64,000 bases of DNA, taken from positions 26,044-90,043 of the IMG/VR virus record IMGVR_UViG_3300032007_000055; one strand, written 5' to 3'. Below, in pieces: positions 979 to 42,652 of the stretch. A program made the translations under genes and the position numbers. Source of the stretch: a virus. Lineage: Duplodnaviria; Caudoviricetes. The notes beneath the pieces were generated by a model. It saw nothing but the letters and a program-made list of their open reading frames with translations. It was not told the DNA's origin and searched no databases. Each line of letters begins with the position of its first letter. Within the stretch, counting starts at the first letter, position 1.

Positions 979-3054
979 TTAACGTTGCATGTAAGCAGCA
1001 CCGGTTTCTAACTGACGTCTCTGGATTTCCTCAACGTCGATATTTGGTGAGAACAATGTGATCATGTTACCAACATTAATCAAATCGCTTACTGTTTCAG
1101 TAATGATGTTCAACAAGCACTTGTCAGTGTTTCTAGGAACGATCAAAGTTGTACACTTTTCTGAATCCAAGCAATTAAACGGTTCCATCTGATTACTCAT
1201 GATGTTGTAAATTACCGGAGATTCGGAAGTAATACACTCTTCCCATTTCTTGAAAGCCTTTGTAGAATCACGATACATATTGTACAACGCATAGCGATAT
1301 GCATTACCAAATGCAAATTCAATAGCTTCAAGAATCACTTCAACAATGTGCTTAAGGTTATCAAAGTTTTCAGCGGCTGTAATGTTGATTTTGATCTTGT
1401 AAATATCATCAAGAACACGGTCTGTCAAATCATAGAAATTATTGTAAATATAGTGACAGATAGCCATATTACCACCGATAGATACACCGCCACTCTTAAT
1501 GGCAGCAGCTACAGCGGCAGCAGCATCTTCTACTACAAGACGTCTTGAAAGTTTTGTCTTTTCTGAACGTCCGCCACAATAATAGAATGTTGTACGAGCC
1601 TGAAGATTATCGATTCTTCCAAACAAGTCATCTGCGGTATAATCTGTTCTGTGATGCTTAATTCTCTTAAGCTTTTCAGCCTGAGATTTCAAATCTTTGA
1701 TCAATGCATCAAATTCTTCTGTATCAGGTTTACAACCAATGAAGTTTGTTTCTGCCTTTCCAGAAGATATGTGATCACAAGTACCAAGCATGTTTTCAAG
1801 CTGTTGTTTTCTAACATTCTTGTCAGGAGACAATTCTGTCATCTTTGTGAGTTCTGTGCTGAAGGGATGTGACTTAGTCATAAGACGGAGATCACTAAAC
1901 CTGAACTGCTCTTCGATTTCCTTATTCTTAAGAATAATTGCACAAATGTTTAACTTGTGAGGTTTAGCAGCAGGATTTGCTTTAGGATCAGCAATGTCTT
2001 CACCAAGTTCATTATAACGAGTACCTTCAATACATTCACGAAGATATTGAGCAATGTTGTAATTGTATGAACTAGCAACAAGGAGCAATGGTTGTTTAAA
2101 ATCAAATGCTACAGATTCAACAATTTGCTTCAAAGCAGGAAGATCTGTTTCAAGAAGCATACCATCAAACATAGCAACCAAAGGTTTATCTGCTTCCCAT
2201 GTGAAATGATCAGCAGAATTATTCATTCGAGATTCATCCAACGGACCAACAGGAACGATAAACGCGTTTGTACCTTCAGAATATTCTTCTTCAGTCTTTG
2301 ACATTGTAACAATTACGTTTCCTCGTCCATCCAACTTATCACGATACAATTCGGCAATCTTTTGACCTGTAACATAGTCATTATTTGCAGAAATAGTCGC
2401 TACCTTTGTGAGCCATTTAATAATATCGTCTTCGTCTTCTTTTGAATACGTTCCGTCAGCATTCGGTTCAGGGAATTTCTTCTGGTAAGCTTTATTGTCG
2501 GTAATTCCTTCAATAATATTCTTTACACAAATGTTTGTGATATTCTTGATACCTACCGGAGAGAATGTCCATTTGCCTTGTTTTGTGTCATTGAAAATTT
2601 CGATATACTTCTTAAGAAGAGCATGTTGAATCGGAATTCCAGATGATGTAGAATCGCCAACTTCAGACTGCATATACTCAGAAGCTTCACGAATAATCTT
2701 AAAAATTCCATTAGGAATCGGTTGTGTGAATTTCATGTTCTGGAGAATAGTGAAACCATCACGAGTATAATAAACAGGAACATTGCGATCGGGTTGTGTC
2801 TGGATCAATGTACCATCAGCATAAGGTCCAATTGTATGACCAATAGCTGTTTCTGCAGCAGCAGAAATGTTTAGAATCTCGTCGACCACAGCATCATTCT
2901 TCAAAATATTCGGTTTAGAAGTTTTGTATTCATTCTTACCGAAACCAATGTCGGAAATAGCCATATCAGAGAAATCGCCAGTGAACTTAGAAACCACGTT
3001 AACATTTTCGGGATTCTTTTTCATATTCTCGAATTCTTCTTCTATTTTTTCCAT
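979..3054 (-). CDS. groEL: phage chaperonin, GroEL/Cpn60-like
   Basis: HTIGPYA, TRDGFTIL, VGDSTSS (cf. TLGPKG, TKDGVSVA, GDGTTT) and VVEDAAAAVAAAIKSGGVSIGG (cf. [21 protein letters not shown]). Confidence 0.92.
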   Translation of the reverse strand: MEKIEEEFENMKKNPENVNVVSKFTGDFSDMAISDIGFGKNEYKTSKPNILKNDAVVDEILNISAAAETAIGHTIGPYADGTLIQTQPDRNVPVYYTRDGFTILQNMKFTQPIPNGIFKIIREASEYMQSEVGDSTSSGIPIQHALLKKYIEIFNDTKQGKWTFSPVGIKNITNICVKNIIEGITDNKAYQKKFPEPNADGTYSKEDEDDIIKWLTKVATISANNDYVTGQKIAELYRDKLDGRGNVIVTMSKTEEEYSEGTNAFIVPVGPLDESRMNNSADHFTWEADKPLVAMFDGMLLETDLPALKQIVESVAFDFKQPLLLVASSYNYNIAQYLRECIEGTRYNELGEDIADPKANPAAKPHKLNICAIILKNKEIEEQFRFSDLRLMTKSHPFSTELTKMTELSPDKNVRKQQLENMLGTCDHISSGKAETNFIGCKPDTEEFDALIKDLKSQAEKLKRIKHHRTDYTADDLFGRIDNLQARTTFYYCGGRSEKTKLSRRLVVEDAAAAVAAAIKSGGVSIGGNMAICHYIYNNFYDLTDRVLDDIYKIKINITAAENFDNLKHIVEVILEAIEFAFGNAYRYALYNMYRDSTKAFKKWEECITSESPVIYNIMSNQMEPFNCLDSEKCTTLIVPRNTDKCLLNIITETVSDLINVGNMITLFSPNIDVEEIQRRQLETGAAYMQR

Positions 3055-12571: not shown

Positions 12572-13435
12572 TTACGACACTTTCTTGAAAAAATCCTTAA
12601 AGACTTTTTGACGAGCGATATCCTCGGACGATTGGTGGTCATACACAGAAATTTTCAAGAACTTTCTACCAAGATTAGCCAAGTGATCTATTTCGATATT
12701 GTGGGCTATTCTAAGCTGGTTTAAGTTCTCTTTTCCGTATATACAGAACATCCAATTAAGAACGTGCTGAAATCTTCTGTACTTTGTTCCGAGAACAAGG
12801 TCTATCGGGAAGGTGAAATCTCCAAACCATTTGGGAAGGATGACTTCGTTATACCCGATGATGTCAGCGTTGATCTCTCTGTCAATGCATTCTTGGACTT
12901 CCATTCTGTCACCGGTATGAGCGATTTCGTCAGGAAGATCCAACTGATGGATCGGATCGTCGTTAATACAATGCCCGATTTCATGAGATATTGTGAAATA
13001 CTTAACGTACTTAAGAAATTCGTACTTTTCACAATAATCGTAAACATCGGAATTGATTACGATGTAGTAACTGAGTGTTTCGGTTTCTTTATTTTTGTCA
13101 CGCGTCCTTATGCATATTGAAAATGCCCCGGTTGTATCTTTAAACTCATTAATAAAGTCGACATTTTCACATATCAACATCATTTCATGAAATGATGTTT
13201 CGAGCATATAGATATCGTGCCCTTCATTTGATTTGAAAGGTGTTTTCTTTGCCAGATCGTAAATGAAATCTATTGTCGAAATTTTATTGAATTTGAAGAA
13301 TCCGCTACACCCTTCATCCTTCATGACCTTTTTGTCTCTAGCCTTAAAATCTTTTGACAAAAAGTTATAGAGAACACCAGGTGTTCTCTTAGGGTCGTAA
13401 TATTTGTTCCAAAATTGTTTAATGGCTTTATCCAT
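12572..13435 (-). CDS. HExxH zinc metallopeptidase-like protein (ImmA/IrrE-like)
   Basis: ISHEIGHC followed by REINAD; early promoter motif at 13452-13465. Confidence 0.65.
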   Translation of the reverse strand: MDKAIKQFWNKYYDPKRTPGVLYNFLSKDFKARDKKVMKDEGCSGFFKFNKISTIDFIYDLAKKTPFKSNEGHDIYMLETSFHEMMLICENVDFINEFKDTTGAFSICIRTRDKNKETETLSYYIVINSDVYDYCEKYEFLKYVKYFTISHEIGHCINDDPIHQLDLPDEIAHTGDRMEVQECIDREINADIIGYNEVILPKWFGDFTFPIDLVLGTKYRRFQHVLNWMFCIYGKENLNQLRIAHNIEIDHLANLGRKFLKISVYDHQSSEDIARQKVFKDFFKKVS

Positions 13436-13520
13436 TATATACCTCCATTAATATAATATGTAAATATATTCAAGATAAAAAAAGAAGGAGTTAAAAACTC
13501 CTTCTTTTAATGTGTAGGCA

Positions 13521-14219
13521 TTATTGTTTAATAATGTCTTTCCAAGGTCGGACATCCTTATTTGAAGGATCAAGACCGATCTCAGAGCACATTTTTTCCA
13601 TAATGGCCAGTGGTGGAACAGCCAGTGGTGTCAATTTCAGATTGTCGAATTTATTACCGACATACTCACATTCTAAATAAATGAGTCTATTAACTGAAAC
13701 CAACTCATAATGATACTTTGGATCGTCCTGGTCAAAAACAACATTTACTGCAGTTTTTATTTTTCTGAAATACGGTTTGTGGCCTAATCCAGAAAAACAA
13801 TCGTAAATATTGTCATAAACATCATCCGCGATTTCGGTTTCGTATTCGTCGTTAATCTCATTGCCATCAACAACACGTTTAATTTTACGTGTTAAATAGA
13901 AATGCAAATCAAAGTCGCTGTAAATGTCCGAATGCTTCAGGTCAACCCCATAATTACTGGTCGTGAACTGTTTGATGAACAAATCACGACGTGCGTCAAA
14001 TGTTTCTGGTAAGATAACATTATGGTGCACCGCGTCTTTCCTAAGTCTGATGACTTTACCATCGTTAGTAAAATCATTAGCGCTTGAGAAATATGCATCG
14101 CGCTTGAAAGTGATGTCGTTCATTCTCACGAACTTCGGATTACTTTCAATTTTCCCCAACACATTATTACCAAAATTTTCCAAAGAAATTGGAATTTTGA
14201 ATTCAACTTCTTTTCCCAT
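13521..14219 (-). CDS. CYTH-superfamily (class IV adenylate cyclase / triphosphatase-like) protein
   Basis: N-terminal EVEFK (ExExK), RDAYF, IRLRK, LTRK, EYETEI, YLECE; start moved to 14219 behind GGAGGT. Confidence 0.8.
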   Translation of the reverse strand: MGKEVEFKIPISLENFGNNVLGKIESNPKFVRMNDITFKRDAYFSSANDFTNDGKVIRLRKDAVHHNVILPETFDARRDLFIKQFTTSNYGVDLKHSDIYSDFDLHFYLTRKIKRVVDGNEINDEYETEIADDVYDNIYDCFSGLGHKPYFRKIKTAVNVVFDQDDPKYHYELVSVNRLIYLECEYVGNKFDNLKLTPLAVPPLAIMEKMCSEIGLDPSNKDVRPWKDIIKQ

Positions 14220-14267
14220 AGGTACCTCCATTAATATAATATATAAGTCTTTTTTTTGTAGAATAAC

Positions 14268-14302
14268 AAAAAAAAAAGAAAGCCCGAAAAAGCTTTCTTT
14301 TT
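14268..14302. terminator. bidirectional intrinsic terminator
   Basis: AAGAAAGC/GCTTTCTT stem flanked by A and T runs. Confidence 0.7.
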
Positions 14303-14324
14303 CCCACCCTTAATTGTTTCGTAT

Positions 14325-14532
14325 ATACAGTCAACCGTGTCGCAGTGTGCAACATCAAAATGGACTAAGATAACTCCACCCTATTAGGCGAAGCACTCGT
14401 TCATCAGAAGAGACAGGTTAGTCTAAGCACCGTAACCGCGCAGCACGGAATGACTGTCAAATCAAGGATAGTTCAGTTTTGAAAACTGCTATGGACTTGT
14501 CCCAACAGGCCTTATTTGTGATTCGTCCACTT
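14325..14532 (-). ncRNA. candidate ~210-nt structured ncRNA, family not recognised
   Basis: no ORF; lies between promoter motif 14540-14551 and terminator; GC-richer than flanks; several long helices (see findings). Confidence 0.6.
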
Positions 14533-14539
14533 TCAGTAT

Positions 14540-14551
14540 TACAATATGTAA
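14540..14551 (-). promoter_or_regulatory. putative early promoter variant (TTACATATTGTA)
   Basis: one-mismatch copy of the recurring motif, pointing into the ncRNA. Confidence 0.6.
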
Positions 14552-14613
14552 TTCACTTTTTTTCTAACAAATATAGAATAGTGCTAACGTGAGTAGCACT
14601 ATTCTACAAATTA

Positions 14614-14886
14614 TTACTTCTTAAAAGTCTTGTATGTCATATTATTAAGTTTGCGTAAAAGTATCTTTAAAGAACGTCTAGCATCACTCTTTTCTTTAAT
14701 GAATTTTTTAGAATCATTAGCGCGGTACATATCAGCAATATCATCAACTACCACACCAAGTACTTCTGCAAAATCCATATTTTCTGGACTTACATCTTCC
14801 AAAGCTTTTACAGATTCTTTGAATTTTTCATTATCGAATGTTTTTTCGCTCATATTGACTATCTCCCAAGAAAATAAACCAAACAT
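14614..14886 (-). CDS. hypothetical protein
   Basis: 90-aa ORF; true start probably MSEKTFD. Confidence 0.7.
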   Translation of the reverse strand: MFGLFSWEIVNMSEKTFDNEKFKESVKALEDVSPENMDFAEVLGVVVDDIADMYRANDSKKFIKEKSDARRSLKILLRKLNNMTYKTFKK

Positions 14887-42367: not shown

Positions 42368-42372
42368 AAGTA

Positions 42373-42457
42373 TGCTGAAGACGGGACTTGAACCCGTATG
42401 CTATTTACTAGCCAAGGATTTTAAGTCCTTTGCGTGTTCCAATTTCGCCACTTCAGC
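42373..42457 (-). tRNA. tRNA-Leu(TAA), CCA not encoded
   Basis: GCTGAAG acceptor, AAGGA CT TAA AA TCCTT anticodon arm, long variable arm, ACGGG TTCAAGT CCCGT T arm, A73. Confidence 0.95.
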
Positions 42458-42652
42458 AAAAATAAAGACCCCACACACCTGGCATAGACGGCCGTTACGG
42501 AGGGCGGCTAAAGGCTACACGAGATGTGTGGGAAAAACGAGAAAGAACAGCGCGTATGATGTGTGCATTTACAGTTATGGAATATCGATACTCTTTTTTT
42601 AGTTTGAGGAGTGAAGAGCATCACCCATAAATGTACACCACTGTTCCAGTAT

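Follow-up and report, generated by a model that had tools for sequence, protein, structure and literature searches.

Phage-encoded non-coding RNAs are few and mostly without known function, and in jumbo phages that carry their own RNA polymerases small RNAs are only now coming to light. In phage 201phi2-1 eleven sRNAs have been described, three of which are intergenic, and the intergenic sRNAs of 201phi2-1 and phiKZ were found by ONT-cappable-seq and have no known function (PMC11512511). A second point of reference is the jumbo phage AR9, whose early promoter is read by the virion RNA polymerase and has the consensus AAATATATATTAT-(6N)-G+1 with the core ...ATATTAT (PMC5312081).

Our sequence analysis indicates that an uncultured phage genome carries, at 14551-14268 on the minus strand, an insulated, stand-alone cassette for a structured non-coding RNA with its own promoter and terminator, and we consider it very likely that this stretch is a real functional RNA gene. 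Coordinates refer to the window, the whole stretch of 64,000 nucleotides that was analysed, which comprises bases 26044-90043 of the 90-kb IMG/VR virus record IMGVR_UViG_3300032007_000055. That record is estimated to be 32% complete, and 90 kb at this completeness implies a jumbo phage. The closest cultured kin of its DNA polymerase are the Bacillus jumbo phages AR9 and PBS1, at ~25% amino-acid identity, and the source phage appears to belong to an uncultured jumbo lineage distantly related to these two. Identical and related contigs were drawn from ENA, JGI, NCBI and Logan metagenomes, and the sample names STEW19 and WILK20 suggest that the lineage probably originates from the rumen. The cassette lies 2 kb from the DNA polymerase gene, and most of the proteins that neighbor it have no PHROG or Pfam family. 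Auxiliary genes that Pfam does recognize in the window, all on the minus strand, encode a GroEL/Cpn60-like protein (979-3054), a radical SAM protein (21683-22657), a MYG1-type exonuclease (29782-30879) and a GyrA/ParC-like topoisomerase fragment (62424-63944).

Read on the minus strand, the cassette runs from the terminator of an upstream ORF through a promoter, the non-coding RNA and its terminator to a second promoter and the next gene. The upstream ORF (79-90 aa; 14614-14853/14886) ends in an intrinsic terminator at 14608-14572, called by a terminator scan as a 15-pair stem with a T-run, which in the window genome would shield the cassette from upstream transcription. About 20 bases past it lies the promoter motif TTACATATTGTAATACT (14551-14535), with the core ATATTGT at 14547-14541, and the RNA itself closes with an intrinsic terminator called by the same kind of scan (14305-14270), a stem of 14-16 pairs followed by a long U-run. 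This terminator is kept in relatives, where one pair alternates between U-A and U.G. An earlier note on this DNA had described a stand-alone non-coding RNA with its own promoter and terminator, and the two flanking elements bear this out; its length, given there as ~210 nt, has to be revised, since the primary transcript is predicted to span ~265 nt (14534-14268), from G14534 to the U-run near 14268, with bounds set by promoter analogy and by the terminator. Downstream of the terminator a motif search finds a second copy of the promoter at 14248-14229 (motif 14248-14233). The predicted start of this copy, G14229, is the first G of the GGAGG before the next gene, and a start placed downstream of the RNA terminator makes the RNA and the next gene look like separate units. 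The RNA region has a G+C content of 44% against 34% for the window. As had been claimed, there is no credible ORF in the ~230 nt between promoter and terminator, and the indels of 2 nt and 1 nt that distinguish homologues, placed in an internal loop and the loop of a hairpin, rule out a coding frame common to them. The one candidate considered, a 51-codon frame with a TTG start, reads through the terminator and its U-run and lacks a ribosome-binding site, and it was rejected.

Sites of this promoter type recur across the window. Look-alikes of TTACATATTGTAATACT number 11 against 0.7 expected, and a motif search that included the second promoter copy returned 24 sites against 4 expected. A looser form, TTAyATATTATAwTA, has 27 copies on the minus (coding) strand of the window, nearly always just 5' of a ribosome-binding site; examples lie at 13463, 14246, 20391, 29739, 31810, 36481, 41424, 42664, 44063 and 61514. 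At these sites a G follows after 2-3 nt, often the G of GGAGG, and leaders would begin at the Shine-Dalgarno sequence. The promoter motif also occurs at 37684, ~17 nt upstream of a minus-strand tRNA gene (37581-37652) that ARAGORN reports as 'tRNA-???', with an undefined anticodon, and that matches the Rfam tRNA model at 55 bits. The promoter of the RNA is kept in seven of seven homologues and matches the AR9 early consensus in core and spacing (ATATTGT, the 6 nt AATACT, then G14534), which leads us to predict that the RNA starts at G14534 and that the transcript begins GAAAGUGGAC.... The AR9 early units described in PMC5312081 resemble the cassette in having the promoter ...ATATTAT-(6N)-G+1, in many copies on the coding strand, but are protein-coding or tRNA genes, unlike the cassette, and the terms 'noncoding' and 'small RNA' are not found in the text of that paper. 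Early transcription, which the earlier note had assumed, is therefore plausible by analogy: the promoter fits the AR9 early consensus and AR9 and PBS1 are the nearest cultured kin, the analogy being drawn with a phage that is 25% identical in its polymerase.

The predicted transcript folds well, and it does so on the expected strand. The whole RNA folds at -85.7 kcal/mol (z = -3.97). Once the terminator is left out, the minus strand still reaches -66.7 kcal/mol (z = -2.39; 5 of 200 shuffled sequences did equally well), compared with -49.9 kcal/mol (z = -0.17) for the opposite, plus strand. The structure thus belongs to the strand whose transcription the promoter and terminator would direct; the consensus fold also contains 12 G.U pairs that are possible only on the minus strand. 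Individual minimum-free-energy folds and RNAalifold on six sequences agree on the structure, in which two thirds of the bases are paired. Hairpin 1 (14530-14491) rises from a 6-bp base, GUGGAC/GUCCAU (14530-14525 / 14496-14491), through a GA/AA internal loop and an upper stem to the 10-nt apical loop AUAAGGCCUG, which is invariant in eight sequences and includes the palindrome AGGCCU. In the 90-kb record AGGCCT occurs in two copies (window 14507 and 41319) against 7.8 expected by base composition, and one of the two is this loop. Hairpin 2 (14488-14474) pairs CAGUUU (14488-14483) with AAACUG (14479-14474) across a UCA loop. The main domain of ~170 nt (14471-14304) is closed by a 12-bp outer helix, P1 (14471-14460 with 14315-14304), and continues as a paired rod that contains ACAGUCA/UGACUGU (14457-14451 / 14333-14327), CCGUG/CACGG, CGCGGU/ACUGCG and GUGC/GCAC. 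Its distal part is branched and nearly invariant and includes the hairpin GCUUCGCC/GGGUGGAG.

All of the stems named in the earlier note were located at their places on the minus strand, and several of the details attached to them changed. The ~130-nt domain that it had closed with ACAGTCA/TGACTGT misses the outer P1 and becomes the ~170-nt domain described above, and its CCUA/UAGG hairpin is part of a stem of 8-9 bp. The ATAG/CTAT extension proposed for hairpin 2 competes, as AUAG/CUAU, with P1, and the one informative change, a U to C in contig L011, favors P1. Pairing of GACAG with CUGUC, suggested as a switch or pseudoknot, is available only in the window sequence; in five of six relatives the U that it needs is G or A. 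The GACUAA/UUAGUC helix does exist as one of two competing folds, but it is an alternative to the consensus, shows no covariation and is disrupted in L015, where a U has become A.

That the RNA matches no known RNA family, tRNA and tmRNA included, held up in the searches made here. Against Rfam 15 at gathering thresholds the whole window matched only two tRNAs, and ARAGORN placed genes only at 37581-37652 and 42372-42458, with neither tRNA nor tmRNA in the cassette. Rfam had been named as the check on this point; relaxed to E up to 10 across 14150-14700, it returned only terminator-type chance matches (14205-14310 and 14544-14625), none inside the core. At E up to 10 the 6S covariance model was likewise unmatched, as were the T-box and riboswitch models. 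Several specific identities were considered and set aside. There was no match to the SRP RNA model at E up to 10, and none to the pRNA model of Rfam, although one self-complementary loop, AGGCCU, of the kind relevant to a phi29-type pRNA is present. A retron msr/msd RNA was discarded on finding no reverse transcriptase (RVT_1) in the 90-kb record, which covers ~32% of the phage, and no RT domain in the neighboring proteins; a Y RNA or YrlA was discarded on finding no Ro60 (TROVE) homolog in the same ~32% of the phage and no Rfam Y-RNA match.

Homologs of the RNA are carried by seven further metagenome contigs, at 91.7-95.8% identity to the window. These contigs were reached through a 135-aa protein encoded two genes upstream of the RNA, for which there are nine homologs at 68-90% identity, and through a 287-aa protein, for which there are seven. 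Sources of the phage contigs were SRR28204446, SRR34413427, ERZ27291662, ERZ28613739 and JGI 3300026539. Full-length copies come from L006, L011, L012, L023 and L089, with L011 and L012 alike; the copy in L015 is complete except for the end of the terminator, and those in L010 and L007 are partial. Two other contigs with weak protein matches, L002 and L003, are without the RNA. Three more (L008, L009 and L013), whose 135-aa proteins are 69-75% identical, stop before the RNA could appear. These three Logan contigs, from three runs (SRR26713998, SRR29277943 and SRR32918214), share the same final base ...GAAAATGAT inside the homolog of the 79-aa ORF (L008:5060-5256, L009:2500-2648, L013:1680-1838) and have an identical 100-nt tail despite different upstream genes, and their common end may reflect a point, variable or repeated, at which assembly broke off. 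Wider searches added little: blastn against the INPHARED phage collection found no homolog of the RNA, IMG/VR yielded no usable relatives through the 232-aa, 90-aa, DNA polymerase and 287-aa proteins or through two RNA patterns, a 17-mer scan of JGI metagenomes gave 64 stretches of which only L023 was a real match, all nine matches in GTDB genomes were by chance, and nhmmer found no further copies of the RNA in the DNA examined.

The surroundings of the RNA change more than the RNA does. Identity to the window is 86-92% for the 135-aa gene, 79-87% for the 287-aa gene and 95-97% for the DNA polymerase gene, and by these figures the non-coding stretch appears to be conserved to much the same degree as the polymerase gene and more closely than the genes next to it. 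With genes named by the length of their products, the order is 135, 79, RNA, 232, 287, pol in the window and in a 191-kb ENA contig; 156, 82, RNA, 283, pol in L006; and 159, RNA, 287, pol in L023 and L089. The piece that stays constant among relatives consists of the RNA, its promoter, its terminator and the promoter copy that follows, and in L006, L011, L023 and L089 this second-promoter segment precedes a different gene from that in the window. Since the flanking ORFs differ among relatives, the RNA is not tied to one neighbor, and this weighs heavily against its being a leader of the 232-aa gene. Among the contigs examined, the 232-aa gene (13521-14219, minus strand) separates the RNA from the 287-aa gene in the window lineage only, and the promoter segment is duplicated on both of its sides. 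Its product has a single homolog, at 68% identity, on L004 (6424-7110; 228 aa), where it stands in a different, inverted context; in this rearranged contig of ~73% nucleotide identity the RNA is missing beside the homologous gene. The 232-aa gene looks like an insertion peculiar to the window lineage and resembles a mobile accessory gene. The 287-aa gene (12572-13435, minus strand), which adjoins the RNA in most relatives, is the most divergent of the neighborhood; its product has an invariant HEIGH motif, and its nearest named language-model neighbors (3 of 30 matches) are metallopeptidases of the M48, M78 and ImmA-IrrE types.

Substitutions among the homologs were examined in an alignment of eight sequences (A3). 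Standard pairs occupy 97.7% of pair cells in this alignment, the fold being tested here on the very sequences from which it was derived. Covariation, measured among sequences that are all close kin, amounts to 23 extra pair types, equal to the shuffled means, and only two pairs change on both sides. A separate test, on the direction of change, gives support. Of 23 transitions in paired columns, 21 keep a standard pair, against 56.8% expected at random (binomial P = 4e-4, with each variant counted once, for a small number of events, some of them inherited in common), and paired columns have 24 transitions to 8 transversions, unpaired columns 8 of each. The 42 columns of the rod account for about half of all changes, nearly all of which keep the pair; CCGUG/CACGG, for example, appears across relatives with G-C, G.U and A-U pairs. 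In hairpin 1 an A.C mismatch (col20/col43) is replaced by G-C (L089, L015) or by A-U (L023, L007), hairpin 2 has a single A-U to G.U change, in L023 and L007, and L011 has A-U in place of three G.U pairs of the distal hairpin, a replacement that L089 shares for two of the three. By contrast with these helices, a 30-column distal stretch has no changes where ~5 would be expected, and the hairpin-1 loop is also unchanged. All of the homologs are close kin, and the conservation may in part reflect recent common descent.

This last consideration bears on the possibility that the stretch has no RNA function at all and is conserved intergenic DNA, either a site near the replication genes or a remnant kept by common descent, that folds by chance. 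The homologs are all at least 92% identical, the covariation values do not depart from the shuffled means, and the RNA is no more similar among relatives than the polymerase gene 2 kb away. We nevertheless regard this as decidedly unlikely: the fold and its G.U pairs are specific to one strand, transitions are biased toward keeping pairs at the P value given above, G+C content is raised in a genome of 34%, promoter and terminator frame the stretch exactly, and the RNA was retained while neighboring ORFs were gained and lost. A cis-acting leader, whether riboswitch, attenuator or T-box-like element, that governs read-through into the downstream gene would suit the order of the elements, which is of the Firmicute type: promoter, structured region, terminator, gene. 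A lead in this direction is AAUUAAGGGUGG (14303-14316, minus strand), which lies just before the terminator and resembles the conserved T-box sequence AAUUAGGGUGG. Yet AAUUAAGGGUGG is paired within P1, and the best folds of the sequences that reach the terminator combine P1 with the terminator and contain no antiterminator. The gene to be controlled is also not constant, being the 232-aa gene in the window and one for a metalloprotease-like protein of 283-287 aa in L006, L011, L023 and L089, and in all of these a complete promoter copy separates the terminator from the start codon. Together with the blank T-box and riboswitch searches, these features make a leader very unlikely.

Three further readings grant the RNA a function of its own. 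It could be a base-pairing regulatory sRNA in which a conserved accessible stretch, AUAAGGCCUG or CAUUUUGAUGUU for example, binds mRNAs of the host or the phage by base pairing and alters their translation or stability. Its own promoter and terminator are what bacterial and jumbo-phage sRNAs have, and one 10-nt loop is invariant; at ~265 nt and with two thirds of its bases paired, however, the RNA exceeds the usual seed-type sRNA in size and in degree of structure, and its variable helices with fixed loops are not the pattern of that class. Elsewhere in the 90-kb phage sequence the invariant loop AUAAGGCCUG has no complement of 7 nt or more, and when targets were sought among all gene starts by RNA-duplex prediction, only long spurious duplexes came out. 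We think this reading unlikely. A 6S-like decoy, which would bind the host or phage RNA polymerase by mimicking open promoter DNA, would be consistent with the long irregular rod of ~33 bp closed by both ends of the domain and with an 11-nt single-stranded bulge, AUAUACGAAAC, opposite 2 nt, and early expression would fit host shut-off. The large two-sided central bubble is nonetheless absent, its place taken by a 2 x 11-nt asymmetric loop, two positions of the bulge vary, branches replace a simple terminal loop at the distal end, two extra 5' hairpins lie outside the rod, and the 6S model is unmatched even at E up to 10. Modeled on 6S in this way, the decoy seems very improbable to us. Last, a compact branched core with long invariant stretches (the 30 unchanged columns) and the strings CUGAUGA and CGAAAC could hint at a new self-cleaving or otherwise catalytic RNA. 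Known ribozyme models are all unmatched, however, L015 has CUGGUGA for CUGAUGA, four relatives have CGCAAC for CGAAAC, and we would consider a catalytic RNA extremely unlikely. A hammerhead in particular was rejected, as these two strings are not conserved and the sequence between them cannot form stem II.

We favor a model in which the cassette encodes a trans-acting, protein-binding early phage RNA. Variable helices combined with fixed loops and junctions are usual for RNAs that bind proteins or adopt a tertiary fold, and small, variable, unannotated ORFs under early promoters are the typical phage setting of host-takeover and anti-defense genes. The RNA gene has just such neighbors, under early-type promoters, and it is this setting, together with fast-changing helices that keep their pairs, fixed loops, the size and extent of pairing, and the branched core, that leads us to prefer this model. 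Beyond this general pattern of an RNA that binds protein or has a tertiary fold, no specific observation singles out any of the roles offered in the earlier note (protein sponge, RNA polymerase decoy or ribozyme). Read loosely, the combined statement has in our judgement about an even chance of being right; that the RNA works through protein binding is, taken by itself, a tentative suggestion that falls somewhat short of even. We envision a scenario in which the RNA would be transcribed early from the AR9-type early promoter, starting at G14534, probably by the injected virion RNA polymerase, with transcription ending at the RNA's own intrinsic terminator. The transcript would then fold into two 5' hairpins and a closed, branched domain of ~170 nt and would act in trans during host takeover as a protein decoy, a sponge or a scaffold for an RNP. 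Transcription, its timing and the protein-binding mode are what we infer from the features of the locus. The AGGCCU of the hairpin-1 loop is self-complementary, and a kissing dimer is possible. One can go further and imagine the RNA as the first of a new class of early jumbo-phage RNAs that the injected virion polymerase makes within minutes of infection, that self-pair through AGGCCU and that titrate a host protein, such as an RNA-sensing defense factor or the host RNA polymerase. We give this elaboration only a small chance of being correct, but if true, the titrating RNA would be an RNA-based takeover or anti-defense device.

For now the finding is confined to one narrow uncultured lineage. 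Within it, an insulated RNA gene with an early-type promoter, kept amid the turnover of accessory genes, is a tangible candidate for a step of host takeover or counter-defense that works through RNA, and the RNA is short enough to be synthesized.

Comparison with described RNAs places these features in context. T-box leaders share with the RNA the succession of promoter, structured region and terminator, and AAUUAAGGGUGG stands beside the RNA terminator; they differ from it in that the RNA matches no T-box model, has no antiterminator in its best fold and precedes a variable gene with its own promoter. With 6S RNA (RF00013), which is stable, highly paired and ~200 nt long, the RNA shares a rod closed by the pairing of its ends, and a decoy role would suit an early transcript. 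The RNA departs from 6S in its lack of a model match and of a two-sided central bubble, in its branched distal end and in its extra 5' hairpins. The phi29 pRNA is a phage-encoded, structured RNA of 120-174 nt that is made from an early promoter and forms a protein-bound multimer via loop-loop pairing. By analogy, the invariant loop with its self-complementary AGGCCU could support a kissing dimer, a conjecture from one 6-nt palindrome, and pRNA belongs to small podoviruses with protein-primed replication, a phage type unrelated to the jumbo phage considered here.

The intergenic sRNAs of 201phi2-1 and phiKZ come closest. The described sRNAs are under 250 nt and mostly derive from 5' UTRs (PMC11512511), whereas the RNA is larger and has several domains; it shares no sequence similarity with them in the INPHARED search and is known from metagenomic contigs alone. 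Homology to them or to any curated family is not detectable. Like the RNA, they are short transcription units bounded on one side by a phage promoter and on the other by an intrinsic terminator, they occur in jumbo phages that encode multisubunit RNA polymerases of their own, and related phages conserve them. Judged by its sequence and layout, the RNA appears to be another example of this loose kind of promoter- and terminator-bounded intergenic sRNA of jumbo phages.
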